Counted from the stretch's first letter, positions 7,281-35,854 are shown. The stretch is DNA of 64,000 bases from Lentisphaerota bacterium (GCA_012514035.1 JAAZBB010000015.1:31077-95076), one strand, 5' to 3'. The notes: a model not told the origin generated them from the sequence alone. A program made the numbers and translations.

Positions 7281-8032
7281 TGGCCAAGCAATACAAAATC
7301 ATTCCTGCGCTCGACACGGCCGACCTCGGCGCGGCGCTGCGGCTGGTGTGCCGCGTGGCGGGGCGCGAATCCGTCTACGGTTTCAAGCTGGGCTTCGCGC
7401 TGGGGCTGGGCCATGGCCTGCCCGAGACCGTCCGGCGCATTCGCGAGTGGACCGACAAGCCCCTGATCTACGACCACCAGAAGGCGGCCACCGACATTCC
7501 AGACACGGGTGCGCTTTTCGGCGACGTGATGAAAACGGCCGGCATCAACGAGGTGATCCTGTTTCCGCATACGGGCCCGCGCACGCTCGCGGCGTGGACG
7601 CAGGCGCTGCAGGAACGGGATCTCAAGGTCATTGTCGGCGCGGTGATGACGCATCCGGCCTATCTGGTATCGGAAGGCGGGTTCATCGCCGACGCGGCCG
7701 CGGCGGCGATCTGCAAGCAAGCGGCGGGATTGGGTGTAGCGGCGTTCGTGGTGCCGCTGACCAAGCCGGAAGTCGTGGCCAAATTGGCGCAGGAGGTGCC
7801 CTTCACGGTCCAGCAGGAATTCTACTCGCCGGGCTTCGGCGCGCAGAAAGGCGACCCGGCGCGGTTTCCAATGCTGGCCAGGCATTACCTGATCATGGGC
7901 CGGTCGCTGCTTGCCGCCGCGGACCCGGCGAAGGAACTGGCCAACACCGAAAAACAACTGGGAATAGGAGAGGCGACAGGATCCACAGGATGGACAGGGA
8001 TAAAAGCAGGATCGAAATCCTGTACATCCTGA
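7280..8032 (+). CDS. pyrF: orotidine 5'-phosphate decarboxylase
   Basis: IIPALDTADL...LIYDHQKAATDIPDTG (D-x-K-x-x-D-I-P-x-T motif). ATG overlaps the pyrE stop. C-terminal tail is encoded by the CAGGAT/ATCCTG repeat block. Confidence 0.75.
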   Translation: MAKQYKIIPALDTADLGAALRLVCRVAGRESVYGFKLGFALGLGHGLPETVRRIREWTDKPLIYDHQKAATDIPDTGALFGDVMKTAGINEVILFPHTGPRTLAAWTQALQERDLKVIVGAVMTHPAYLVSEGGFIADAAAAAICKQAAGLGVAAFVVPLTKPEVVAKLAQEVPFTVQQEFYSPGFGAQKGDPARFPMLARHYLIMGRSLLAAADPAKELANTEKQLGIGEATGSTGWTGIKAGSKSCTS

Positions 8033-8060
8033 TCATCCTGCAATCCTGTCTAGAACGAAT

Positions 8061-8996
8061 ATGAAAAAAGACCTGATCTCGATTGACGACCTGCGGCTGG
8101 AGCAGATTCTGAACTATCTCGACCTCGCGGCGCGGGTGGCGGCGATTCCGGACGCGGAAAAGTTCCGTTTCCTGCCGGGGCGGATTCTGGCGACGCTGTT
8201 CTTCGAGCCCAGCACGCGCACACGGCTGAGCTTTGAATCGGCCATGACCCGGCTCGGGGGACGGGTCATCGGGTTTTCGGAGGCGGCGGGCTCCTCGACG
8301 GCCAAGGGCGAATCGTTCTCCGACACGATCCGGACAGTGGAGCAGTATGCCGATATCATCGCAGTGCGGCACCCGAAGGAGGGCACAGCGCGGCGGGCGG
8401 CCGAGATCAGCCGCCTGCCGATCCTCAACGCCGGCGACGGCGCGAACCAGCACCCGACCCAGACGCTGCTGGACCTCTACACGATACGCAAGTTCTTCGG
8501 CCAGGTGGACGGCCTGCGGATCGCATTGGTGGGGGATTTGAAATATTCGCGCACGATCCATTCGCTGTGCCGGGCGCTGCTGATGTTCGACGGGGTGGCC
8601 ATGACCCTGGTGTCGCCCGAGAGCTTGAAACTGCCCGGCTACCTGCTGAAGGCGGCCAAAGGAACAACGGCCACCTTCCGCGAGACCAGCAGCCTGGAGG
8701 AGGCCATCCGCGAAACCGATCTCGTCTACATGACCCGCATTCAGAAGGAGCGTTTTCCCGACGTGGTGGAGTACGAAAAGGTCAAGGATGCCTATGTGCT
8801 GGAGGCCGGAATGCTCGCCGGCGTACCGGCCCGCTTCAAGGTGCTGCATCCGCTGCCGCGGGTGAACGAGATTTCGCCGGACGTGGACGCCACGCCGCAT
8901 GCGGGCTATTTCGAGCAGGCCCGCAACGGCGTGATCATGCGCGAGGCCCTGATCCTCGACTTGCTCGATGCCCGGCCGGCAAGGAGCACGCCATGA
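8061..8996 (+). CDS. pyrB: aspartate carbamoyltransferase catalytic subunit
   Basis: STRTRLSFE, HPTQTLLDLYTI and HPLP motifs. Confidence 0.95.
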   Translation: MKKDLISIDDLRLEQILNYLDLAARVAAIPDAEKFRFLPGRILATLFFEPSTRTRLSFESAMTRLGGRVIGFSEAAGSSTAKGESFSDTIRTVEQYADIIAVRHPKEGTARRAAEISRLPILNAGDGANQHPTQTLLDLYTIRKFFGQVDGLRIALVGDLKYSRTIHSLCRALLMFDGVAMTLVSPESLKLPGYLLKAAKGTTATFRETSSLEEAIRETDLVYMTRIQKERFPDVVEYEKVKDAYVLEAGMLAGVPARFKVLHPLPRVNEISPDVDATPHAGYFEQARNGVIMREALILDLLDARPARSTP

Positions 8997-9472
8997 CTCC
9001 CCAGAGCCAGATTCTCCTGATTCCCAAGATCGAATGCGGCTATGTGATCGACCACATCCCGGCCGGGCTCGGCATCCAGGTCATGGCGCTGATCGGGTGC
9101 CATCCGGAGCTGGAGGCAGCCGTGGTGACGCTGGGCCTGAACTACAAGAGCACGCGGATGGGCCGCAAGGACATGATCAAGCTGCAGACGAAATCCCTGC
9201 CGCCGCGGCTGCTGCAAATGCTGGCGCTGGTGAGCCCTGGCGTGACCATCAAGCGCATCGCCAACTATGAGGTGGTCGAGAAGGTCGTGATCCAGGTGCC
9301 GGAGCTGTTTGACAATCTGGCGCGCTGCATCAACCCCAACTGCATCACCAACGTCGAGCCGCACATCGGGACGCGCTTCAAGCGGCTGGAATCCGGTTCG
9401 CGGCATTTCAAGTGTGCGCACTGCGAGCGCGTCTGCACGCTCGACGAACTGGCGGGGCACCTCAAGGCATGA
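8993..9472 (+). CDS. pyrI: aspartate carbamoyltransferase regulatory subunit
   Basis: MTPQSQILLIPKIECGYVIDHIPAG... and a C-terminal Zn-binding Cys cluster (CINPNCITN...CAHCER). ATGA overlap with pyrB. Confidence 0.9.
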   Translation: MTPQSQILLIPKIECGYVIDHIPAGLGIQVMALIGCHPELEAAVVTLGLNYKSTRMGRKDMIKLQTKSLPPRLLQMLALVSPGVTIKRIANYEVVEKVVIQVPELFDNLARCINPNCITNVEPHIGTRFKRLESGSRHFKCAHCERVCTLDELAGHLKA

Positions 9473-10401
9473 ATCCGCTAGCCGTCCGGATTGCCGGAAT
9501 CGCGCTTGAATCGCCGCTGGTGCTGGCGTCGGGGGTGCTGGGTACGACAGCATCCTCGCTGCGGCGGGTGGCGCAGGCGGGCGCGGGGGCGGTCACGACG
9601 AAGTCGTGCAGCCTTGCGCCGCGCCCGGGGCATCCGGCCCCGTGCATCCTGCCGTGGAAGGGCGGGATGCTCAACGCCGTCGGGCTGTCCAATCCGGGCA
9701 TCGAGGGCGCGCTGGAGGAAATTACCGAATACCGGCGGACCTGCCGGACGCCGCTGTTCGTCTCGATCTTCGCGGGCAGCCCGGCGGAGTTCGGGGAATT
9801 GGCGCAGCGGGTTGCGGCGGCCAAACCGGATTTGATCGAAGTCAACGTGTCCTGCCCGAACGTGGAATCCGAATTCGGCGCGCCCTTCGCCGCGGACCCC
9901 GCCGCCTGCGCGGCGGTGACGCGGGCGGTGAAGGAGAACGCCGGCGGCATTCCGGTTTCCATCAAGCTCGCGTCGCAGTGTGCCTCCATCGCGAAAATGG
10001 CGGAGGTCTGCCAGCGGAGCGGGGCGGACGTGCTCACGGCCATCAACACGGTCGGCCCGGGGATGTGGATTGATCCCGGCGCCGGCCGGCCGGTGCTGTC
10101 GAATCTTGTCGGCGGCGTTTCCGGAACGGCCATCCTGCCCATCGCGGTGCGGGCGGTCTACGAAATCCGCCGCGCGGTGGATTTGCCGATCATCGGCACG
10201 GGCGGGGTGTCGTGTGCGGCGGATGCGCTGCAACTGATCATGGCCGGGGCGGACGCCGTCGGCCTCGGCAGCGCCATCTACGGCGGCGGAATCGGCTTGT
10301 TCGACGAGATCAATCGAGGATTGGCCGATTTCCTCCAGAGCCGGGGATATCAGTCCCTGCACGAGGTTCATGGAATGGCGCACGAAAAAGGCAAGCCATG
10401 A
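9469..10401 (+). CDS. pyrD: dihydroorotate dehydrogenase catalytic subunit (class 1B)
   Basis: TIM-barrel DHODH motifs (GVLGTT, NTVGPG, IGTGGV). Followed by a pyrK-like gene. ATGA overlap with pyrI. Confidence 0.9.
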   Translation: MNPLAVRIAGIALESPLVLASGVLGTTASSLRRVAQAGAGAVTTKSCSLAPRPGHPAPCILPWKGGMLNAVGLSNPGIEGALEEITEYRRTCRTPLFVSIFAGSPAEFGELAQRVAAAKPDLIEVNVSCPNVESEFGAPFAADPAACAAVTRAVKENAGGIPVSIKLASQCASIAKMAEVCQRSGADVLTAINTVGPGMWIDPGAGRPVLSNLVGGVSGTAILPIAVRAVYEIRRAVDLPIIGTGGVSCAADALQLIMAGADAVGLGSAIYGGGIGLFDEINRGLADFLQSRGYQSLHEVHGMAHEKGKP

Positions 10402-11233: not shown

Positions 11234-12109
11234 TTATGTCAGCCGGAGCATGCGGAGCCAGTCGCGGAAATCGCGCGGGAGGGGGGCGGCGGCCGAGACG
11301 GTTCGGCCGGTGACAGGATGCCCGAAATGCAGTTCCGAGGCATGCAGCATCTGGCGGGGCACGCCGGGAAAATCGGCGCTGCGGGCGCTGAAGTATTGCC
11401 GGTCGCCCAGGATCGGGTGCCCGATGTGGTGCAGATGGATCCGGATCTGGTGGGTGCGGCCGGTTTCGATGGCAACCGTGACATGCGCGCTGCGCGGCGG
11501 ACGTGTTTGCACGGCAACCTGTCGCACGTGGCTGACGGCGGGCAAGTGGTCCACGGGTACGCGGATGTCCAGTTGAGGTTCAGGCAGGTTGCCGGCGACC
11601 AGCGCATGATACCGCTTGCGGACCCGGCCTTGCTCGAACTGGGCGATCAACGCGCGGCGGGTGTCTTCGTCCTTGGCAAAAAGCACGCACCCGGAGGTGT
11701 CCTTGTCGAGACGGTGGACGGCCCGCAGGGCGGGCAGGCCAAGCTGATCGCGCAGGCGGGCTTCCAGGGATTTTTCGCCGGTGGTGAGCAGTCGCGGCGG
11801 CTTCTCGGCCACGAGAAAAAGCGGATCGTCCAGCAGGATGCGGACGGCGGCGGCCGTGGCCGGCTGGGGGGCCAGGGCGGCGGCGAGCACTTCGACCGCG
11901 TCGCGGGTCTGGAGCAAATGCCTGGCCATCCAGATGCGCCGGCCGTTGACGAACACCAGGCGGTCATCGAGCAGACTTTTGGCTGCGCGTCGCGAAAGGC
12001 CGAGGTGTTCCGCCAAATGAGCCAGCAATTCCGTCCCGTTGCGCCGCGCGGGCGGCAGGCGGCGAAGGGCGGGGGTGCGGGGTGCCGGGCGTTTCATGCG
12101 GGGCAACAT
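11234..12109 (-). CDS. RluA-family 23S rRNA pseudouridine synthase (S4 domain plus catalytic domain)
   Basis: HRLDKDTSG catalytic motif and an N-terminal S4-like region. Confidence 0.85.
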   Translation of the reverse strand: MLPRMKRPAPRTPALRRLPPARRNGTELLAHLAEHLGLSRRAAKSLLDDRLVFVNGRRIWMARHLLQTRDAVEVLAAALAPQPATAAAVRILLDDPLFLVAEKPPRLLTTGEKSLEARLRDQLGLPALRAVHRLDKDTSGCVLFAKDEDTRRALIAQFEQGRVRKRYHALVAGNLPEPQLDIRVPVDHLPAVSHVRQVAVQTRPPRSAHVTVAIETGRTHQIRIHLHHIGHPILGDRQYFSARSADFPGVPRQMLHASELHFGHPVTGRTVSAAAPLPRDFRDWLRMLRLT

Positions 12110-12123
12110 AGCGCGGCGCAGGG

Positions 12124-12828
12124 TCAGCCGTCGAGGCGGAAGGGGGAGAAGCGAGTGCGGGTGTCGTAGGGATCGGACTGTTCGGCGCGCTTGAGGCGGT
12201 GCACGATCCAGTAGGTCAGCGGAGTCGCCAGGACTTCATAAGCGGTCTTGAGCAGGAAGTTCCAGCAGGCGACCCGGACCACGAGTTGGACCGGCCAGAC
12301 GCCGCCGAAGGCAAGGACGGTGAAGAGGAGCGAATCCAGGCCTTCGCCGGCGATGGTGCTGCCGATGGTACGCATCCAGAGATGGCGGCCGGTCATCCAG
12401 ACCTTCATCTTGGCCATGACCCAGGCATTCAGAAACGAGCCGCACCAGAAGGCAACGAGACTGCCGAACACGACCCGCGGAGTTTGAAGAAGAATAGCGG
12501 CAAAGGCGTCCTGCATCTCCCAGCCGGGGGCCGGGGGCAGCAGCGCAACCAGCGAAAAAGCGGCTGCCGCGAAGAAGTTCAGGGCAAACCCCAGCCAGAT
12601 GACGCGTCGGGCCTGGGCGTATCCGTACACTTCAACCAGGATGTCGCCGAAAATGTAGGAGACCGGAAACAGCAGGTTGCCGCCATCCATCGTGATGAAC
12701 GGCAACCCGGGAAGAGTCAGGGGCTTGATGGCGCTGACGTTGGAAACGACCAGCACGGTGCAGAACACCGCGCTGATCGGTCCCAGCCAGCGCCGGGCGG
12801 AAACGGGGAAGGATTCCCCGGAGGGCAT
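12124..12828 (-). CDS. yhhQ: queuosine precursor transporter (YhhQ/Vut_1 family)
   Basis: FPVSYIFGDILVEVYG signature in a polytopic membrane protein. Confidence 0.78.
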   Translation of the reverse strand: MPSGESFPVSARRWLGPISAVFCTVLVVSNVSAIKPLTLPGLPFITMDGGNLLFPVSYIFGDILVEVYGYAQARRVIWLGFALNFFAAAAFSLVALLPPAPGWEMQDAFAAILLQTPRVVFGSLVAFWCGSFLNAWVMAKMKVWMTGRHLWMRTIGSTIAGEGLDSLLFTVLAFGGVWPVQLVVRVACWNFLLKTAYEVLATPLTYWIVHRLKRAEQSDPYDTRTRFSPFRLDG

Positions 12829-13712
12829 TATTTCCCGAACGGATTGATGTTTTTCAGCGCGCCGCCGACGGCGTCGCCGACGGCCTTCCCGGCATCCACC
12901 GCGCCGCCGACGACAGCCTTGCCCGCGTCGGTTGCGCCGCCAACGACGGCCTTCCCGGCATCCACGGCCCCTTCGCCGACGGCCAGGGCGCCTTCGCCGA
13001 CGGCCTTGCCGGCATCGCCGATCAGGTTGCCCGCACCGGCAATGGCGGTGCCGGCGGCTCCGGCGACGGCATTGAGGATTTCACGGATGGCCTCGGGAAT
13101 GCTGACGCCTTCCTTTTCCTTGCCCAGATCCGTCAGGGTAATGGGGGGCAGGGGAATGGGAATGGCCCCGCCGCCGGTCAGGGCCGCCGCTCCGGTGATG
13201 GAGAAGTTCATCTTGCTGCCGGTGATGGAGAGTTTTTCAATGACGACCTTCTTGCCGGGCTTTTCATCTTTGGGCGGCTCTGCCTTGGCTTCGCCTTCTT
13301 CTTCAGGTTTCTCTTCCTTGCCGGCCGAGAGCTGGTCGATCAAGGCGCCGAGATTGCTGTTGAGCAGGCCCTTTTCATAGGTCAGTTCAAGGCCTTCGAT
13401 GGTGATTTCCCGGATGACCATGGTGTCTGAAAGCAGGGTGGAGTTGTCGATATCCACCCGGACCGACCCGAGGTCAAACAGGCCCGGGGTGTTGAAGCCC
13501 TCGGGATTGCCGATGTGGAGGCCGCTGAGGGCGGCTTTGCCGCGCAGGAGAGAAATGTCGGCGTTGGCCAGGGTGGCCTCCACGCCGAGGGCGCCGGGTG
13601 CGGCGGCGTTGAAGCCCTTCAGGATCATTTTGTCCAGGGACAATTCCAGGACGACGAACAGAACGGCCAGGACGACGAGGACGCCAACCAGGATCTTCAA
13701 CAGCGTTTTCAT
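12828..13712 (-). CDS. membrane-anchored hypothetical protein with Gly/Ala-rich C-terminal repeats (AsmA-like?)
   Basis: Start set at MKTLLKILVGVLVVLAVLF (transmembrane anchor, AAGGAA ribosome-binding site 8 nt upstream). About five 11-aa DAGKAVxGGAx repeats at the C-terminus, encoded by 33-bp tandem DNA repeats. Confidence 0.5.
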   Translation of the reverse strand: MKTLLKILVGVLVVLAVLFVVLELSLDKMILKGFNAAAPGALGVEATLANADISLLRGKAALSGLHIGNPEGFNTPGLFDLGSVRVDIDNSTLLSDTMVIREITIEGLELTYEKGLLNSNLGALIDQLSAGKEEKPEEEGEAKAEPPKDEKPGKKVVIEKLSITGSKMNFSITGAAALTGGGAIPIPLPPITLTDLGKEKEGVSIPEAIREILNAVAGAAGTAIAGAGNLIGDAGKAVGEGALAVGEGAVDAGKAVVGGATDAGKAVVGGAVDAGKAVGDAVGGALKNINPFGK

Positions 13713-27292: not shown

Positions 27293-27738
27293 CCGCAGAG
27301 GACCGCAGAGGAACACAGAGAAATATCCCGTGCTTAGCAGGAAAACAGGAAACCCAGGAAAACAGGAAGGGAATGATAGCCATTTTTCTATCACGCGAAG
27401 GCATGAAACCACCGGCTGCGGACAGGGAAGGCAGGGACGCCACTGAAACCTTCTCACGCTGAAGCGGGTACTAATAACGAGTTGTGTTTGTAGTCCAGCC
27501 TTTCAGGCTGCAAATTCGGCTTTTTATCGCGAAAAACGCCCCTTTTTGATGAAAATTTCAATAAATTGCCGGATTTTTGATTATTTTGCCTAAAAAATGC
27601 CTAAAAAATGCCAAAAATATGCCAAATTTTCCTGTTTTCCTGTTTTTCCTGCTTTCTTGCTTCGGTTTTGGGCTGTTCCTCCTGTAAATTTTGAAAAATT
27701 CTGTTCCTCCTGTCTAAATTCTTAGTAATTTGACCAAA
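27293..27738. promoter_or_regulatory. AT-rich structured intergenic region with inverted (CAGGAAAA)x3 / (TTTTCCTG)x3 arrays and TGCC-A6 tandem repeats
   Basis: 27338-27369 CAGGAAAACAGGAAACCCAGGAAAACAGGAAGG and 27627-27652 TTTTCCTGTTTTCCTGTTTTTCCTGC are inverted. TGCCTAAAAAA appears twice in tandem. TTCCTCCTGTCTAAATT appears twice before the ATG at 27739. Confidence 0.5.
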
Positions 27739-28812
27739 ATGCGGGCGATTCATCAAATTGTGGCCGGATTTGCCAATGGCGACGCCATCAGCAACGAGGC
27801 GCGGACGATGCGCGATTTGTTCCGCTCCTGGGGCCATGAATCGCACATTTACTCGGAATTGAAGCGCATCCTGCCTGAACTACGGGGCGACGCCCGTGAT
27901 CTGACGGCCTGCAAGGGCGATTTCCGCCCCGACGACATCGTTCTGCTCCATTTATCCATCGGTTCGGACGTCAATGACATCTTTCCCGCCCTGCCAGGGC
28001 GAAAGGCCATTCTGTACCATAATATCACCCCGCCCGAGTATTTCCGCGGCGTACAGGAGCAAACGGCGCACTTGCTGGCCCGCGGACGCCAGCAGGCCGC
28101 CGCCTTGGCCGGCACCGCCGAGGTCGTCATGGCCGATAGCCGGTTCAATGCCGAAGAAATCGCCGCCATGGGCCATGCCAATCCGCAGGTCCTGCCGTTG
28201 ATGCTGGATTTTTCCCGGCTGCGTGCCAAGGCCGACCGGCGCATCCTGCGGCAATATCGCGACGGCCTGGTGAACATCCTGTTTGTCGGCCGCTGCGCAC
28301 CCAACAAGCGCATTGAAGACCTGCTCAACGCCTTCTACTATTTCCAGCGCTATGTCCAGCCCGCCTCTCGCCTGATCCATGTTGGGTCCTACGCCGGAAT
28401 GGAGCAGTATCATGCGCTGCTGTTGACCCGGAAACGCGAACTGCAGCTCAAGAACGTGGAACTGGTCGGCGCCGTCCGGCAGGATGAATTGAATGCCTAT
28501 TACGCGGTGTCCCGCGCATTCCTGTGCCTGAGCGAGCACGAGGGCTTCTGCATCCCCCTGCTCGAAGCCATGACCCATGATGTGCCCGTCATCGCCTATG
28601 CCGCCGGGGCCGTCCCCGAAACCCTCGACGGTGCCGGCGTCCTCCTCCACGAAAAACGCTTCGACCTCATTGCTGAAACCCTCGGCCGCATCACCGAGGA
28701 CGAACCCCTCCGCAACGCCCTCCTCACCGCCCAGCGCGCCCGCCTCGACCGATATGAGAAGCAAGACCTCGCGGCTAATCTCAGACGCCATTTCGGAGCG
28801 CTGCTTGCTTGA
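27739..28812 (+). CDS. glycosyltransferase family 4
   Basis: EX7E-type motif EGFCIPLLEAMTHDVPVIAYAAGAVPE. First ATG at 27739; the track ORF opens at TTG 27730. Confidence 0.85.
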   Translation: MRAIHQIVAGFANGDAISNEARTMRDLFRSWGHESHIYSELKRILPELRGDARDLTACKGDFRPDDIVLLHLSIGSDVNDIFPALPGRKAILYHNITPPEYFRGVQEQTAHLLARGRQQAAALAGTAEVVMADSRFNAEEIAAMGHANPQVLPLMLDFSRLRAKADRRILRQYRDGLVNILFVGRCAPNKRIEDLLNAFYYFQRYVQPASRLIHVGSYAGMEQYHALLLTRKRELQLKNVELVGAVRQDELNAYYAVSRAFLCLSEHEGFCIPLLEAMTHDVPVIAYAAGAVPETLDGAGVLLHEKRFDLIAETLGRITEDEPLRNALLTAQRARLDRYEKQDLAANLRRHFGALLA

Positions 28813-28838: not shown

Positions 28839-30059
28839 TCAAGCAGATTCGCTTCGCGATGCCTTGATCCAGGAGCGCAGCAACTTCCGCGCTTTCCCAA
28901 TGCCGCGTACCCACAGGGATGGAGCCGGAGAAATGGGGTATTTCTTCATCAGAACTGGCAATTTCCGGCGAAAGGCATCGCGCAAGAACTTCCGGCGCAG
29001 GGGCGGGCGGGCAAAGGAAAAACGAATGGGCGGGTTTTTGCCGATCGCAGACTCGAAATCCACTTCCGCCAGGAACAGGCGATCGGCAATGTCCTCGATG
29101 GCCTTGAATCCTTTATTGGTCATCAGCACAACCAGCGATGTGCCCCGGTCATCGGTGTCGAATTCGGAATGCAGTGATCCCACGCCCCAGAAATCGGCCA
29201 GTAAAATATCCGCCGGCATGTTGTCCCCCTTGTAGCGGCATTCATAGCAGGTATAGCGGAGGCAAAGGTTCCGCAGGAATGACCACATGAAATAGTTGTG
29301 TCCAAAATACTCTTGGAGCACCTGTCCATTCCGGAGCACCTGCCGGATTTGAAATTTTTTCCAGCCTTTGGCCTTGTTGCGGAAGGAAAAATCGACCACC
29401 GGGGATTCCCGCGCGATATCGCATTGCGCGCGATAGTGCTGAAACCAACCCGGAGAGGAGATGCCGTGGCACGCAACCGCACAGGTCAGTAAATTCGGAT
29501 AATCCGATTGCAGGAACAGGCGCAGGCCTGCCACTTGGCATGGGCATCCGGAAAACAAGACCGTGTGGCCTGCATCCAATGCCTGCCGGATGCCATGATA
29601 GGTTTCAGTTCCGATATCGCTTTGGACATATTTGCTGGTGCGGAAAAGGGGTAACTCCCTGGCGGTGGAAGCCAGCAGGTGGCGGACACCCGTAAAATCC
29701 GGATTGAAGATGGCGCCCGAAACCAACCCGCCCCCGGCGACGACCTGCTCCGCCAAGGCCGTAAATACTCCGCCGGATGAACTGGCCGCGCGGATTTGCG
29801 GATCCAGGTGCCAAGCGGCATACGCCCGGGAGTCATACGGGGGTTCCGGTGCAGGCGGGCGTTCAATCCATGGGCAAACCCGCCGGCATTGGCCGCACCG
29901 CACGCATTTTGCGGAATCGACTTTCGGATAGTCAAACCCCTCCTGGTTGCGAACCATGCCGATGGCTTGTACCGGACAGATCGCCAGGCACGCGCCGCAT
30001 CCGCAGCAAGCGGCCGGATCGCTCGGTTGAATGTGCACAGACTGATGCGCAGGCTTCAA
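28839..30059 (-). CDS. coenzyme F420 hydrogenase/dehydrogenase beta-subunit-like protein (FrhB/FdhB family) with N-terminal 2x[4Fe-4S] ferredoxin domain
   Basis: CCGCGACLAICP and CVRCGQCRRVCP ferredoxin motifs. Divergent from a pyruvyl transferase, as commonly seen in polysaccharide pyruvylation loci. Confidence 0.62.
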   Translation of the reverse strand: MKPAHQSVHIQPSDPAACCGCGACLAICPVQAIGMVRNQEGFDYPKVDSAKCVRCGQCRRVCPWIERPPAPEPPYDSRAYAAWHLDPQIRAASSSGGVFTALAEQVVAGGGLVSGAIFNPDFTGVRHLLASTARELPLFRTSKYVQSDIGTETYHGIRQALDAGHTVLFSGCPCQVAGLRLFLQSDYPNLLTCAVACHGISSPGWFQHYRAQCDIARESPVVDFSFRNKAKGWKKFQIRQVLRNGQVLQEYFGHNYFMWSFLRNLCLRYTCYECRYKGDNMPADILLADFWGVGSLHSEFDTDDRGTSLVVLMTNKGFKAIEDIADRLFLAEVDFESAIGKNPPIRFSFARPPLRRKFLRDAFRRKLPVLMKKYPISPAPSLWVRGIGKARKLLRSWIKASRSESA

Positions 30060-30106
30060 TGTGTGAGTCTATTGCCAAACGCCGGGGTCGGTGGCAAGAT
30101 GTTTCC

Positions 30107-31321
30107 ATGCCGAGGCGCACGAATCAGATTATGAAAGCCCATGGGATTTTGATTTACCGGCACTTCGGCAGTCTGAATCGTGGCAACGAAGCCATTGTGC
30201 GCGGAACCAGCTCCTTGCTGAAAGAAATCTGCGGTCCCGAGCTCCGGATTCGGGTTGCCAGCCGTGCACCCCGGGAGGACCAGCGGGTCTTCCTGCCCGC
30301 GGTGGATGCCATGATGGGCATTGGCAATCCGTGGTCCGGCCATCCGCTGTTGTGGAGACTGCATGCGGCAGTGGAATGGCGGTTGCGGAAGCCAGAACAT
30401 CGCGTAGTCTGGGACAGTCTTCAAACCCTCCGCTGGGCCAGGCGATCGGATGTGTGCCTGTCGGTGGGCGGAGATCTCTATTGTTATAACACTTCACACT
30501 ATTCTTATCCTTTGCAGCGCATTATGCGACGGCTCACGCGCAAGATGGTGCTGTGGGGTTGCTCGATCGAACCGGACCGGGTCGATGAACCCATGCTGGC
30601 AGACTTGCGCCGGTTCGACCTGATTACGGCGCGCGAATCGATTACCCTGGCCGCGTTGCGGGACAAAGGGCTGTTACGGGTGCGGTGGTATCCGGATTCG
30701 GCGTTCCTCATGGAAGAGGACCGACAACCCTTGCCGGCGGGATGGCGGGACGGACAGATGGTCGGGCTTAACGTCAGTCCGCTGATTGAGAGTTATGAAA
30801 GCCAACCCGGAGCCTCGTTGACGGCCTGTCGGGAATTGGTGAGGCACATTCTGGACCATACCGACATGGGGGTCGTGCTGGTGCCTCATGTGACCAAACG
30901 GGAGTCTGACGATCAAATTCCGCTGCGGAAGATATGGGAGGCATTCGCCGCCACTGGCCGGGTTTTTGCATTGTCAGGCGATCTGAATGCACCTCAAATC
31001 AAAGGCTATATCTCCCGTTGTCGCTTTTTCGTGGGTGCGCGCACCCACGCCACCATCGCAGCGTATTCCACGGGCGTGCCCACCCTGGTGTTGGGATACA
31101 GCGTCAAAGCGCGTGGCATTGCCCGGGATTTATTCGGGAACGAACAGGGGCTGGTATTGCCGGTTCAAGATCTGACCGAGCCCCGTTTGTTGGTGCGCCT
31201 GTTCGCGGGATTGCAGCAAAGGGAGACAGCACTCCGGGCACATTTGGCAGCTGTCTTGCCGGGCTATATCCGTGCGGCAAGAGAAGCCGGGTGGGAAATC
31301 TGCCGGCTCCTGCACGAATAG
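30107..31321 (+). CDS. polysaccharide pyruvyl transferase family protein (WcaK/CsaB-like)
   Basis: N-terminal LIYRHFGSLNRGNEAIVRGT. Start set at ATG 30107. The longer track ORF from 29777 overlaps the divergent gene. Confidence 0.68.
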   Translation: MPRRTNQIMKAHGILIYRHFGSLNRGNEAIVRGTSSLLKEICGPELRIRVASRAPREDQRVFLPAVDAMMGIGNPWSGHPLLWRLHAAVEWRLRKPEHRVVWDSLQTLRWARRSDVCLSVGGDLYCYNTSHYSYPLQRIMRRLTRKMVLWGCSIEPDRVDEPMLADLRRFDLITARESITLAALRDKGLLRVRWYPDSAFLMEEDRQPLPAGWRDGQMVGLNVSPLIESYESQPGASLTACRELVRHILDHTDMGVVLVPHVTKRESDDQIPLRKIWEAFAATGRVFALSGDLNAPQIKGYISRCRFFVGARTHATIAAYSTGVPTLVLGYSVKARGIARDLFGNEQGLVLPVQDLTEPRLLVRLFAGLQQRETALRAHLAAVLPGYIRAAREAGWEICRLLHE

Positions 31322-31389: not shown

Positions 31390-31608
31390 TCAGTTGCTGG
31401 CGTGGGCGGCTCTCCACGCCCCGTGGATTTCATGCCGGGCGAAGATTCTTCCGGGCTGGCGGCCCAGCAGCAGGACGCGCTCGCCGTCCTTGTCGGTCCA
31501 TTCCGTGTTGTTTTGCTCGCACTTTTCGAAGGGCTTGAGCGTGGCGGGATCCGGCAGCCCTTCGACGATGGTGTCAGTCATGACATCCGGGCCCGTGTTG
31601 TAGAGCAC
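31390..31608 (-). pseudogene. duplicated 3' fragment of the GT32 glycosyltransferase gene at 34800-35582
   Basis: The 72-aa ORF is more than 90% identical to the C-terminal 70 aa of the 34800-35582 protein. The underlying 235-bp DNA (31418-31652) is about 96% identical to 34825-35059. Confidence 0.7.
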
Positions 31609-31778
31609 GCCATACTGCGACAGCGGGGCATGGGCGTTGCGCCCCAGGCGTTATAATGGGCCATCTGGCCATTTGTTCTTGGATCCTCGGCGGGCGGAAT
31701 TGAGTGTCCGCCGCGGCAGGCCAACATGCCGCTAGCTTATATTAAGAAACACCCATGGGGTGGCGGGAGGCCGCGATT

Positions 31779-33494
31779 CTATTCATATTTTAGAAACAGC
31801 GGAGTGCCCTTATCGGGTCCACCAGTGATGATGCCGCGATCCACTTGGACTTTGCAGACTTCATCAGCGAGGGTGAGCGGCTCAATCCGGGCATCGAGGA
31901 TGGAGGCATCCTGAAAGAGATGCGCGAAAATCACGGGAAATATGTCCTGCAGGATTTGGATGCCGCCGGCGGACGCTAATTGGGGATCCGGCCAACGTAT
32001 GGCCAGAAAACTGCCATAGCGGTCCTGAATGTCGAGTCTATTGATTTCACTTGCCGGGTACCCTTCCAGGTTAAAGCAGTTTTTTGTGAGATAAGGGCCG
32101 TGGTCTCCCGCCAAGATGATAATGGCATCGGGATGATGCTGGAGGATCGTTTGAACATCCACTTGCATTTCTTGGTTGGCCTTGACGACATCCATTAGAT
32201 AGAGTTGCGTTTCGTCAGGCCGGCATATCCCGGAGTTTTGGCTATGTCCAGGCAGGCGATTATGGCAGTAACAGAAGATGGGCGCTGGATATGGCCGAGA
32301 GAGCGCATCTCTTTTTTCAGCAAGGAAAGAGTCATATGGGGTGGCGTCAAAGGAAATGTCAAATCTGAATTCTCCCTCCCATATCGCCCGGCTGATGATG
32401 TGGGCCGGTTTTGATGTCACCTTGGGATAGTAATAATCGTAGGCGGGAAAGGTGCGCTGGAATACATAGCCCTGGCCGATGATAGCGGTGGTTTGGTACC
32501 CCTGTTCTTTGAAAATGGCAGGTACGGCCGAGTACCCCGCCGTGAACAGCCGGTAATTGCTGTGCGGCAATATACGCACCGGATGCAACACGCGGCTCAT
32601 GGATTTGAGAGTATCGGCGCCAACTGTGTAGGTTCCTTCGTAGATATGAAACCCGTGGCTTTCAAGGAAATCGGTCTGCGGGGAGTTGTCGAATCCATAC
32701 GCATCCAAGGTTTCACGGTTGGCGTATGATTCGTAGATCAGCAAGAAAACATCTGGGCGGTGCAACATGTGTTTGCCGGCAAGAAATGAAAGAAGGGGGG
32801 CCGGCGGGACTTCCGCGGTTGCCGCCCGGTCGGAGCCGTCGCGTGCGCCGGTCTTCCATCCCGCGATTAGGCTGACGGAAAACATGCCAACGACCATGGC
32901 GTAGCATGTTTTTCTGCTGGCCGCGTAGACGCCGGTCAAGGCTGCGATGGTGACAAGCAGAATGGGGCCTTGAACCTTGAAGATTCCTGCTTGATACCAT
33001 CCGAATGCCGAGGAGTACGAGCCCATGTTGAACATGGTGTGGGCGAGTCCCACGCTCGTCAGCATGATGATGTGATTGGGCCATCGCGGAAATGCCAGAG
33101 AAAGCAGCCCCGGACAGGCGATGCAGCAAGCCCCAATAATTGCGGAAAAAAACAGGAAAACGAGAGCCGAATCCATGATTGATAGCATATCTTGATTTGC
33201 CAAAATATACTGAACAATCGGCGTGAGAGGCAGGAGGAGGAGAAGGAGGTCGCCCCAAATGGTTTGTTCGGCTTGGCAGCGGGGTTGAGGTGCGCCCTTA
33301 GGACGGTGAATCCTGCGGACGGTTTGAATAAGCCCTACCCCGATCAGGCCCGCGGCAACGGGCAACAACGCCTTGGACACAAATACCCTGTTGACACCTG
33401 AAGGCAGGAGAAACATGCCAATCGCCATCCAGGCCCCAAGCGTGCACAGCATCGCGAGCCCGCTTATAATCAATTTGTTGTAAGACGGAACCAT
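31779..33494 (-). CDS. membrane-anchored sulfatase-like protein (alkaline-phosphatase superfamily; LTA-synthase/phospho-transferase-like)
   Basis: Five N-terminal transmembrane helices, then a sulfatase-type domain (LLIYESYAN...LAGDHGP). Noticeably lower GC than the surroundings. Confidence 0.58.
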   Translation of the reverse strand: MVPSYNKLIISGLAMLCTLGAWMAIGMFLLPSGVNRVFVSKALLPVAAGLIGVGLIQTVRRIHRPKGAPQPRCQAEQTIWGDLLLLLLPLTPIVQYILANQDMLSIMDSALVFLFFSAIIGACCIACPGLLSLAFPRWPNHIIMLTSVGLAHTMFNMGSYSSAFGWYQAGIFKVQGPILLVTIAALTGVYAASRKTCYAMVVGMFSVSLIAGWKTGARDGSDRAATAEVPPAPLLSFLAGKHMLHRPDVFLLIYESYANRETLDAYGFDNSPQTDFLESHGFHIYEGTYTVGADTLKSMSRVLHPVRILPHSNYRLFTAGYSAVPAIFKEQGYQTTAIIGQGYVFQRTFPAYDYYYPKVTSKPAHIISRAIWEGEFRFDISFDATPYDSFLAEKRDALSRPYPAPIFCYCHNRLPGHSQNSGICRPDETQLYLMDVVKANQEMQVDVQTILQHHPDAIIILAGDHGPYLTKNCFNLEGYPASEINRLDIQDRYGSFLAIRWPDPQLASAGGIQILQDIFPVIFAHLFQDASILDARIEPLTLADEVCKVQVDRGIITGGPDKGTPLFLKYE

Positions 33495-33759
33495 GTCCTG
33501 GCCGGTGATGGTTGTGAAGCTGCGCCCCCGTTTTGCATCAAAGAATGCCCGAACCTGATCCTCGATGGAGAGATCTTGGATCCTGGTGATCTTTTAGAAC
33601 AATCGGTAGATCAATTGGCATTCGAACGCTATGTTTCTTCTGACAAATCAATATGTCATATCCCGATGGCAAGTCAAGCGGGCGGCGACAGTCAAGCGGG
33701 CGGCCGGGCGGCGAGAATGGGTCCTGTCCAGCTCGTCGGAGCCGGTCTGGGCGGGCACC

Positions 33760-34522
33760 CGCCCGGCGCCGCACCTCTTCAAAGAACCGCCCCTTGACGG
33801 GCACCCACGTCTACGTGTGGCTGGACGCGATCTGGCTGAAGCGCAGCTGGGCCGGCGAGGTCCGCAATGTGTCGGTGCTGGTGGCCATCGGCGTGGGGGA
33901 CGAAGGCTACCGGGAAGTGCTGGGCGTGCAGGAAGGGATGAAGGAGGACAAGGAGAGCTGGTCGGACTTCCTGAAGAACCTGCGGGGCCGCGGCCTGAAG
34001 GGCACGGAACTGTTCGTCACGGACAAGTGCCAGGGCCTGGTGGAGTCCGTCGGGGAGATCTTTCCCGAAGCCCGCTGGCAGCCATGCGTGGTGCATTGGT
34101 ACCGCAACGTGCTGCGGACCGTCCCCAAGACGAAGTGGCGGGAGGTGGCGGCCATGCTCAAGGCCATCCACGCCCAGGAAGACCGCCGCGCGGCGCTGCG
34201 CAAGGCGCACGACGTGCACAAGAAGCTGTTGGCCATGAAGCTGGCGAAGGCGGCGCAGATCATGCGCGAAGGCGTCGAGGAGGCCTTGGCCTACATGTCG
34301 TTCCCCCGGGAACACTGGCTCAAGATCCGCACGACCAATCCGCTGGAACGGATCAACCGGGAGATCCGGCGCCGGACCCGCGTGGTGGGCGCCTTCCCCG
34401 ACGGAAACGCGGCCGTTCTGCTGGTGGTAGTCCGATTGCGACATATTGCCGGCACCCGCTGGGGCACGAAAATGTACATGGACGTGAAACGCCTGGAAAA
34501 CCGGAAGGAGACCGCCGCCTGA
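33760..34522 (+). mobile_element. IS256-family transposase, N-terminally truncated remnant
   Basis: NRPLTGTHVYVWLDAIWLKRSWAGEVRNVSVLVAIGV...DGYREVLG matches the DDE region of the IS256/mutator family from the first Asp onward. The roughly 150 N-terminal residues are missing and no intact inverted repeats were seen. Confidence 0.8.
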
Positions 34523-34799
34523 CCTGGCGAAAATTTCCTCGGGGGGATTCCCCCCGGGAAGGAAGAAGAGAGCAAGCCATGCCTCAACCGAGAACCTGTC
34601 TCAAACCAAAGTGCGAAATATTCTGGACACTACCCTTGGTAACAATGAGGGCGCGGTAACTTATTTGAAGCCAAAACAGCTTCCTCGAATGCTTAATGCG
34701 TGACGCAAGACCCAGAAGGCCAACTTGTGCAAGTAAACGTTTCCCCAGCTGATATAATGTCATGAGATATCTCGAGTGATCGGTCTGCAAATTGGAATG

Positions 34800-35582
34800 C
34801 TATTTTGCATGCGCCTCGCGCCATGCCCCGTGGATTTCATGCCGGGCGAAGGTTTTGCCGGGCTGGCGGCCCAGCAGCAGGACGCGCTCGCCGTCCTTGT
34901 CGATCCATTCCGTATTGTTGTGCTCGCACTTTTCGAAGGGCTTGAGCGTGGCGGGATCCGGCAGCCCTTCGACGATGGTGTCAGTCATGACATCCGGCCC
35001 CGTGTTGTAGAGCACGCCATACTGCGACAGCGGGGCATGGGCGTTGCGCCCCAGGCGTTCCTGAATCCGGTTCAGGCACCGGGCCAGAATGGGCGAGTGG
35101 GGACGGCGGCTCCAGAAGACATAGTTGGCGATCCGCACGTTGTATTCCGGAACCTCCCCGCGAAACTCCCGGGTCATGGCCATGTTTTTCTGGACGGCCT
35201 CGTCGCTGTTTACGAATTCCGTCCAAGCCACGAAATCGGGTCCAGTTGGCACGGGCTTGCGTCCCCATTCAATATCGTGGTCGGAATAGATGCCCGCGCG
35301 GTCGTAGATCAGCAGCAAACGCAGGATGTCGGATCGCATCACCGGCGACGTGTAGGGTGCCCAGAAAAGTTCATAAATTCCCGGGAATTGGTCTTGATGC
35401 CGGGCCAAAAGGGCCCGGGTCTCGGCTTGACTGGACCACAGGATGACTTTTGCGCCCCGCGGCTTCCGTTTGTCCAGCGATCGCAAGTACCCGGTCGGAA
35501 TCGGATTGCCGTCGTTTTCCAGCCAGATCTTGTAAACTAGAACGACTGACTGAGGGGCAAAAGGCCAGCGGAAGAATTTCAT
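34800..35582 (-). CDS. glycosyltransferase family 32-like (DXD sugar-binding region)
   Basis: LLLIYDRAGIYSDHDIEW resembles the Gly_transf_sug DxD region. Start set at MKFFRWPF (ATG 35582). Confidence 0.58.
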   Translation of the reverse strand: MKFFRWPFAPQSVVLVYKIWLENDGNPIPTGYLRSLDKRKPRGAKVILWSSQAETRALLARHQDQFPGIYELFWAPYTSPVMRSDILRLLLIYDRAGIYSDHDIEWGRKPVPTGPDFVAWTEFVNSDEAVQKNMAMTREFRGEVPEYNVRIANYVFWSRRPHSPILARCLNRIQERLGRNAHAPLSQYGVLYNTGPDVMTDTIVEGLPDPATLKPFEKCEHNNTEWIDKDGERVLLLGRQPGKTFARHEIHGAWREAHAK

Positions 35583-35854
35583 GATGGAATCCGTTCGAAG
35601 AACTGGTGTTGGGTTGTCTGCCGCTCTGGCGCGAATTCGCATGTCCAATCGGCGCGAGCCGGTTCATCTCTTGAAGCCAAGCAGATCGTCGGGCAAACCA
35701 CAAGACAGATGTCCAGGGCATGGAAATCCTCATGGCGCGCTCCCCAGGTTCCGCCGTCTTCATCAGCGGGACACAGAAGGGCGCCAAACGGAAAGAACCG
35801 GAGTCCGGTCCCCCGGCCGCTTCCATTGAACAAAGCATGTGTTGACCACCGGCC

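Follow-up and report, generated by a model that had tools for sequence, protein, structure and literature searches.

How a gene for a membrane enzyme and a broken insertion sequence (IS) came to lie between two copies of the end of one glycosyltransferase (GT) gene is the question raised by a 64,000-nucleotide stretch of DNA from a Lentisphaerota bacterium (GCA_012514035.1 JAAZBB010000015.1:31077-95076), hereafter called the window, in whose numbering positions are given. By source and sample names, the host is an uncultured member of the Kiritimatiellia from anaerobic digesters. A preliminary description had noticed a 235-nt direct duplication of a GT 3' end around a sulfatase-like gene and an IS256-family transposase fragment, and had read the arrangement as an IS256-mediated acquisition of foreign DNA into a surface-polysaccharide locus, followed by decay of the transposase. 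Our analysis has led to a different mover: we consider it probable, though well short of settled, that a 3,170-bp foreign module has been inserted at the 3' end of a GT32-like gene by homology-anchored displacement, and that the resulting repeats have afterwards recombined with each other.

An Insert at the 3' End of a Glycosyltransferase Gene

The intact GT32-like gene (34800-35582, minus strand) encodes 260 residues, which match Pfam PF04488 (Gly_transf_sug) with 27.1 bits (cut-off 23), align end to end with orthologues of 256-270 residues and carry a DXD motif (SDHDIEW) that has been kept in all orthologues. Its 3' part recurs downstream as a gap-free direct repeat (31416-31652 and 34823-35059), for which alignment has given 8 mismatches over 237 nt; 7 of these fall inside the 235-nt span noticed before, which corresponds to 97% identity, and a repeat search has returned the pair as 253 nt at 94% (31400-31652 and 34807-35059). 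At such a length a chance origin is of no concern, and no third copy has been found in the window. The right copy (R1, 34823-35059, minus strand) codes for residues ~175-253 of the intact protein. The left copy (31416-31652, minus strand) is a 5'-truncated orphan that corresponds to residues 175-261, shows GT homology up to 31652 and retains an open reading frame (ORF) of 72 codons (31390-31608); most of its changes replace residues (H>Q, I>T, KT>RI). The duplication has thus been borne out, and the two genes between its copies had been placed and described correctly.

At their tips the two copies part. The orphan holds the native tail (31390-31415, minus strand; WRAAHASN and stop codon), which is also the tail of a 261-residue GT in strains with an empty site, and the intact gene ends in a substitute tail with stop codon (34800-34822, minus strand; 23 nt), which is borne by the insert, has ~54% nucleotide identity to the native tail and renders the last seven codons (WREAHAK) unlike it; the gene then closes with ...KTFARHEIHGAWREAHAK, and a 165-nt spacer follows. 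Orthologues keep W-R-[AE]-[AS]-H at the C-terminus, and the family motif W-R-x-A-H has been kept in the substitute tail as well (W-R-E-A-H-A-K versus W-R-A-A-H-A-S-N in the left copy), the residues common to both tails being written in synonymously different codons (CGC/AGA, GCG/GCC, CAT/CAC, GCA/GCC). As the right tail is GT32-like in protein and its codon changes are synonymous, the insert must have brought the end of a homologous, divergent gene.

The insert itself spans 31653-34822 (3,170 bp). In GT sense, the 5' part of the gene is followed by R1, the substitute tail, the spacer (34635-34799, from the IS right end to the GT stop codon), an antisense IS remnant (34634-33784), 289 nt, the gene of a 571-residue protein, 126 nt, the left junction J (31653|31652), the left repeat, the native tail with its stop codon and a convergent pyruvyl-transferase gene. 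Besides the transposase remnant and the 571-codon gene, no sizeable gene has been found in 31653-34822, and neither a tyrosine or serine recombinase nor a replication function is encoded there.

The two junctions are of different kinds. At J, the similarity of the repeat copies ends abruptly, and the insert (..CCCATTATA) and GT (..GATTCAGGA) flanks have just a final A in common; J is, as far as these flanks tell, an illegitimate junction. On the GT side, differences between empty and insert haplotypes are confined to 34824-34998, with none across 34999-35808 (810 nt), and the single-nucleotide polymorphisms (SNPs) past 35808 are ordinary strain polymorphism common to insert-bearing contigs. 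The switch between alleles is thereby placed within the final ~100-240 nt of the GT gene, and it points to homologous or homeologous recombination at the right junction rather than to transposition. A donor of uniform divergence has been considered for this side and rejected, as the 810 nt upstream show 0 differences, the final ~180 nt show 7-8, and the tail diverges by ~45%; an origin by tandem duplication of all 3.4 kb has likewise been rejected, as the outer flanks differ.

The idea that foreign DNA has been inserted here has held up: the empty site is present in six contigs, the 571-codon gene has the lowest GC content in the locus, and its product has no relative above 42% identity. In related taxa, a convergent gene always lies ~70-180 nt downstream of the GT orthologues (60-82% identity), and neither the IS nor a homologue of the 571-residue protein has been found 3' of those compared. 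A foreign origin of the insert is thereby supported at the level of sequence. The proposed check of composition has turned out as expected in one part: the 571-codon gene has a GC content of 0.537 and a GC content at third codon positions (GC3) of 0.622, against 0.626 for the whole window and a GC3 of 0.78-0.86 for core genes. Composition by itself is nevertheless weak evidence of foreignness, because several neighbouring glycan genes are low too (GC/GC3 of 0.570/0.603 for a GT2 gene, 0.589/0.674 for the pyruvyl transferase and 0.561/0.670 for an FrhB-like gene).

Alleles With No, One and About Two Copies

The single insert has been found in at least 22 contigs of JGI, ENA and NCBI assemblies, including contigs of 1.67 Mb and 713 kb, and the 260-residue GT is encoded on at least 34 contigs, the 261-residue form on ~6. 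The metagenome scan with the GT has returned four loci only, which were of use for L019, and is no census. In the empty site, known from six contigs of six assemblies (L008 and L021-L025), a single repeat joins the sequence from 34821 upward to that from 31652 downward, and the 261-residue GT with its native tail is directly followed by the pyruvyl-transferase gene; the 11.8-kb contig L021 is collinear with the window from the Toluene_X porin gene to wzt. At eight variable sites (var), the single copy of four empty contigs equals the left copy of the window throughout (LLLLLLLL), the two others being RLLLLLLL and LRRRLLLL, and the flanking SNPs of the empty contigs match three different backgrounds, each of which is found in insert-bearing contigs. 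L008 has right-type var2-4 beside left-type var5-7 within ~70 nt, which is less than one read. Outgroup orthologues show the right-copy state at var2, 4, 6 and 7, and the left-copy state at var8 together with the native tail. From these patterns, the empty alleles may represent the resident state, secondary deletions between the repeats, or both. L008 had also been tried as the simple ancestral empty site, with one crossover placed between var4 and var5; this candidate has been dropped, since the majority of the empty alleles are of left type at all sites.

A tandem junction, in which the 571-codon gene is followed by J, a repeat, the substitute tail and the spacer, has been observed in the 713-kb NCBI contig L026 (JAXGJM010000001.1) and in the independent JGI contig L019, which have the same private SNPs. 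After the common R2-tail junction, L019 runs on into the IS end. L026 carries a second, partial unit and reads, in GT sense, 571-codon gene, J, R2, substitute tail, spacer to 34664, 32581 onward, J', R3 and native tail, the second unit containing the 3' 800 nt of a ~2% divergent copy of the 571-codon gene. The alleles with 0, 1 and ~2 units are explained by the 237-nt repeats now being substrates for homologous recombination, and to judge from the contigs the repeats are active as such, with the cassette present at 0, 1 or ~2 copies.

One further feature of L026 is the join at its position 10352|10353, where window 34664 meets 32581; it marks a 2,082-nt internal deletion, which starts 30 nt outside the IS end and by which the IS remnant has been lost together with 913 nt from the 5' end of the 571-codon gene.

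The IS256-Family Remnant

The transposase fragment does belong to the IS256 family, as had been supposed. The stretch 33653-34522 matches PF00872 (Transposase_mut, DDE transposases of the Mutator/IS256 type; E 4.8e-67, profile positions 152-369 of 379), and a full-length relative (L027, ~1.4 kb, coding for the 402-residue P0160) has 93% nucleotide identity over 33784-34634, the homology ending exactly at a matching right inverted repeat (IRR; ...AAAGTGCGAAATATTCTGGACACTACC, 34608-34634). The remnant (33784-34634, plus strand) differs from a complete family member in being 851 bp long and in having lost the first ~570 nt of the IS, that is, the left inverted repeat (IRL) and codons 1-156; it comprises transposase residues 157-402, coded up to 34522, and, past them, the 3' non-coding end, which includes the IRR. 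The suggested search for IS256 inverted repeats has been run with up to 3 mismatches and has found only the IRR at 34608-34634, with no second IS end or copy in the window. A complete element of ~1.3-1.5 kb with two terminal inverted repeats is likewise missing, the homology to L027 being limited to 33784-34634, and as the left end is gone, the IS has no pair of flanks that could show an 8-9-bp target-site duplication.

The remnant lies inside the insert, 188 nt from the right junction (the 165-nt spacer plus the 23-nt GT tail) and 2.1 kb from the left one, so that neither insert boundary (31652|31653 and within 34823-35059) is an IS end, and the insert is flanked by neither a second IS copy nor a target duplication. 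What had been called decay comes down to one 5' truncation, and the 246 codons that are left form an open frame with 96% protein identity to the intact P0160, and their GC3 of 0.897 is host-like or higher. Near-identical copies occur in the same habitat and class (P0160, 96%; P0165, 84%). What the truncated inner end reveals is an earlier illegitimate event, in which the 571-codon segment was joined to the interior of an IS, and nothing more.

Two side observations concern these elements. In L004 and L026, 5-13 clustered differences from the window fall within the remnant (34083-34492), with the adjoining 571-codon gene almost identical, which suggests that the remnant may have been converted by other IS copies. 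In L027, an inverted copy of the element's own left-end repeat (GAAAGTGCGAAAATACCGTACGTTATC; ~460-490 and ~573-600) lies 5' of the full-length IS and could be a solo end or a nested element resembling a miniature inverted-repeat transposable element (MITE).

Origin of the Insert

From this anatomy and these alleles, we infer the following mechanism and polarity of events. The incoming module would have consisted, in GT sense, of a substitute GT tail, a spacer, a 5'-truncated IS256 copy and a self-contained EptA/LtaS/PbgA-like gene of 571 codons. Homology to the final ~100-240 nt of the GT gene would have anchored one end of the incoming DNA, and this anchoring would be the reason why the resident gene has stayed intact with a new 3' tip. 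The other end would have been joined illegitimately at about nucleotide 530 of the GT gene, by which the resident 3' end was pushed downstream as an orphan. The IS copy would have travelled as a passenger, truncated beforehand or on its joining to the 571-codon segment, and would not have moved the module. Homologous recombination between the repeats would then have produced the alleles with 0, 1 and ~2 units. Such a displacement pattern is commonly ascribed to homology-facilitated illegitimate recombination (HFIR), of which one junction in donor-recipient homology is characteristic; the allele switch inside the GT gene and the GT32-like tail provide just this. The second junction of such events lacks homology and tends to fall at 3-10 nt of microhomology. 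The underlying HFIR studies are reportedly those of Prudhomme, of de Vries and Wackernagel, and of Meier and Wackernagel.

Several points weigh against this course of events. No donor locus has been found, so that microhomology at J cannot be scored. The donor GT end has to be identical to the resident one for no fewer than 139 nt and to diverge thereafter by ~4% and ~45%, and such a mosaic requires that the donor was conspecific or that the crossover fell within the repeat; as the latter implies a true duplication, it favours a circular variant with a single crossover. Right-copy states are ancestral at four sites in outgroups, and the empty alleles could therefore be secondary deletions. The second unit of L026 has small indels, possibly assembly noise, the empty-site SPAdes contigs with coverage in their names (L008, L021, L024) have values of 0.5-0.8, and a mis-resolved repeat would also yield the joins named A-R-D (empty site) and C-R-B (tandem).

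The circular variant would be a Campbell-type integration, in which a circularised non-replicating fragment with the last ~240 nt of a GT32 gene, the spacer, the IS remnant and the 571-codon gene enters by one RecA-dependent crossover, and the reverse reaction and unequal exchange later give the 0- and 2-unit alleles. It predicts the exact anatomy, in which the tip of the intact gene comes from the element and the native tip stays on the orphan, it accounts better for the first 139 nt of both copies matching the empty allele, and it offers the C-R-B junction of L019 and L026 as a circle or tandem junction. However, the unit encodes no replication or recombinase function, no circular contig has been seen among those analysed, and the private SNPs of R2-B' and the ~2% divergence of the second unit in L026 are unlike a fresh excision product. 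We regard this integration as rather unlikely, and on present data it and the HFIR model cannot be separated. A greater, albeit less than even, chance is given to a reversed polarity, in which the species had the insert haplotype from of old, the orphan is a decaying duplicate and the empty alleles are recent, recurrent deletions between the repeats. The outgroup states at var2, 4, 6 and 7, the mostly non-synonymous changes of the left copy, three crossover classes on three SNP backgrounds and the far commoner insert allele are all in line with it, but the four of six empty alleles that are left-type at every site fit a resident allele equally well, and it is the left copy that resembles the outgroups in the native tail and at var8. 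Moreover, it concerns polarity only and is compatible with homology-anchored displacement, as the origin of the insert still requires an insertion event.

The IS256-mediated acquisition that had been proposed, by a composite transposon or by one-ended transposition bringing the 571-codon gene, with decay thereafter, can point to a genuine family remnant next to a low-GC gene, to the near-identical active copies in the same habitat and class, and to the truncated IS end abutting the upstream region of the 571-codon gene, so that the IS may have acted earlier, in the donor. It has not withstood the analysis of the junctions: no insert boundary coincides with an IS end, the single IRR faces the GT gene, the 237-nt flanking repeat is unlike an IS256 target duplication, and at the right junction one allele gives way to another inside homologous GT sequence. 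We consider it very unlikely, and as judged from these junction sequences transposition can be excluded as the maker of the present junctions. Nearly the same low probability applies to an assembly artefact. A-R-D and C-R-B are the two wrong paths through a two-copy repeat, contigs L017, L018 and L020 break inside the repeat, and coverage is low in those empty-site contigs that give it in their names; yet the insert arrangement is identical across the contigs of all three sources, the long ones included, the empty contigs come from six assemblies with flanking SNPs of their own, L008 mixes allele states within less than one read, and L019 and L026 share private SNPs. Homology-anchored displacement thus remains the reading that we prefer.

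The 571-Residue Membrane Protein

The cargo gene (31779-33494, minus strand) encodes a membrane-anchored protein of the alkaline-phosphatase superfamily with ~7 N-terminal helices and a sulfatase-fold domain from residue ~245. It is preceded by an upstream region of 289 nt (33495-33783, minus strand), which adjoins the truncated IS and contains a sigma-70-like match (33677->33650), and is followed by the insert tail of 126 nt (31653-31778, minus strand), which has a terminator-like hairpin (31762->31750) and ends at J. Just beyond the truncated IS end, two exact 15-nt direct repeats (AGTCAAGCGGGCGGC; 33672-33686 and 33690-33704) stand 3 nt apart and overlap the minus-strand sigma-70-like match.

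The protein has scored 19.5 bits against Pfam Sulfatase (PF00884), under the cut-off of 25, and searches of NCBIfam and by profile against PDB sequences have given no meaningful match for the family. As the Pfam match is below threshold, the fold assignment rests on structure searches. The AlphaFold model, a confident one (mean pLDDT 87.7), shows the N-terminal helices and an alpha/beta domain from residue ~249, and its closest folds include PbgA as the top match, EptC and LtaP/LtaS. A membrane domain is followed by a sulfatase-fold extracytoplasmic domain, as in EptA/LtaS-type phosphotransferases. Candidate catalytic residues (E255, T295, H411, H417 and D464-H465) have been placed from the Pfam alignment register and secondary structure; among them, E255, T295 and D464-H465 are putative counterparts of the metal-binding Glu/Asp, the Thr/Ser nucleophile and the Asp-His pair of such phosphotransferases. 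Across 40 homologues, H417 and D464-H465 do not vary, strand 1 ends in Asp or Glu throughout (E255 here), the nucleophile position at the N-terminus of the following helix (T295-L-K-S-M) is Ser or Thr in every one, and the sulfatase motif C/S-x-P-x-R is absent there. A formylglycine-dependent sulfatase (S1) has been considered and judged unlikely on the Pfam score and the lack of a C/S-x-P/A-x-R motif.

EptA, MCR-1 and EptC are phosphoethanolamine transferases, and LtaS, LtaP and GacH are glycerol-phosphate transferases. The protein has just 9-16% sequence identity to these enzymes and to PbgA/YejM, and with ~7 predicted helices it differs from EptA/LtaS-type proteins, which usually have 5. 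It speaks against a transferase of this type that PbgA is not known as catalytic and that arylsulfatases score nearly as high in the structure searches. On the model and the conserved residues, the description that suits the protein best is nonetheless that of a membrane-anchored enzyme of EptA/LtaS type within the alkaline-phosphatase superfamily, which most likely takes a phospho-substituent, such as phosphoethanolamine or phosphoglycerol, from a lipid donor and transfers it to an envelope glycan outside the cytoplasmic membrane. Of the phospho- or sulfo-substituent that had been suggested for it, the former is plausible from the model; the Ser/Thr nucleophile position makes sulfatase activity appear unlikely, and nothing suggests sulfo-transfer.

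The proposed search for the nearest donor has named no lineage. The best relative is 42% identical, and none is found in other Kiritimatiellia. A profile scan of a species-level genome collection has returned members mostly from Chloroflexota/Anaerolineae and scattered ones from Syntrophaceae, Spirochaetota, Krumholzibacteriia, Erysipelothrix, a metagenome-assembled genome (MAG) of the Planctomycetes-Verrucomicrobia-Chlamydiae (PVC) group and others, all with at most 40% identity. In this collection, which holds one genome per species, no 100% match to the protein has been found and the window's own species has not been returned; the species representative may lack either the cassette or the region. 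Around three distant homologues no conserved gene context and hence no functional clue has been found; unconserved neighbourhoods are usual for stand-alone envelope enzymes. Several Anaerolineae MAGs and one PVC-group MAG have two loci of the family (L036/L045, L066/L090, L088/L094), and L028 has loci at 8001-9728 and 11351-13084, the second being an unannotated 577-residue gene 1.6 kb downstream, which hints at a possible paralogous expansion. This widespread family of ~580-residue membrane proteins, with its predicted EptA/LtaS-type look, lacks a curated model as well as a solved structure, and its biochemical characterisation would be worthwhile.

The Surrounding Polysaccharide Locus

The insert lies in a polysaccharide cluster of the Wzm/Wzt type with genes for a MurJ-like flippase, Wzm/Wzt, a GT4, an FrhB-like protein, the pyruvyl transferase, the GT32-like protein, a DUF6311 protein and a GT2. 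At 28839-31321, the FrhB/FdhB-like iron-sulfur protein and the polysaccharide pyruvyl transferase are encoded head to head; this pair is missing from the otherwise syntenic contig of orthologue P0124 and is therefore a variable part of the locus, too. Between wzt and the GT4 gene (27300-27730), GC falls to 43-50%, the lowest in this part of the window. Within the GT4 gene (28344-28386), L020 and L021 differ from the window by ten SNPs in 43 nt, which looks like a short patch of recombination or gene conversion.

Comparison With Known Systems

The event is of a known kind, an orphan-forming displacement with repeat-mediated gain and loss in a variable glycan locus, and thus a matter of ordinary strain-level reshuffling that does not overturn current understanding. 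It offers a nucleotide-level case, in an uncultured digester organism, of a surface-polysaccharide locus gaining a modifying enzyme without a working mobile element, and the repeat formed by the orphan gene end makes this gain reversible. It is also a caution that an IS fragment beside low-GC DNA need not be the vehicle of transfer.

Prophage e14 and phage 21 in the icd gene of E. coli are integrative elements that supply a substitute 3' end to a gene. The window resembles this type in that the gene is intact with an element-derived 3' end and a direct repeat at the far side holds the orphan native end. It differs in that no integrase or recombinase has been found in the 3.2-kb insert and in that several crossover points fall in the repeat, for which homologous rather than site-specific recombination is expected.

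A further likeness, as we read it, is to loci of type VI secretion systems (T6SS), Rhs proteins and contact-dependent inhibition (CDI), for which displacement with an orphan has been described and HFIR has been proposed as the mechanism (PMC5361080). In those loci, as here, the conserved part of a resident gene serves as the anchor, a new 3' tip arrives with downstream cargo, and the old 3' end is displaced downstream, where its direct repeat with the main gene later permits deletion or rearrangement. The differences are that a glycosyltransferase in a polysaccharide locus takes the place of a toxin, that the new tip amounts to ~7 codons and a few substitutions, that the cargo is a predicted glycan-modifying enzyme with a dead IS, and that the mechanism is deduced from the junctions. 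A bolder view, which we put forward as a speculation and hold unlikely in full, would see the 3.4-kb unit of repeat, substitute GT tip, IS relic and transferase gene as a recombinase-free, homology-driven cassette that, in a natural population of Kiritimatiellia, switches phospho-modification of the glycan off, on or doubled with 0, 1 or 2 copies, and the 571-residue protein as the founder of an uncharacterised, mostly Chloroflexota family of envelope phosphotransferases. If it were true, the cassette would be the glycan-locus counterpart of orphan displacement in Rhs and CDI loci.

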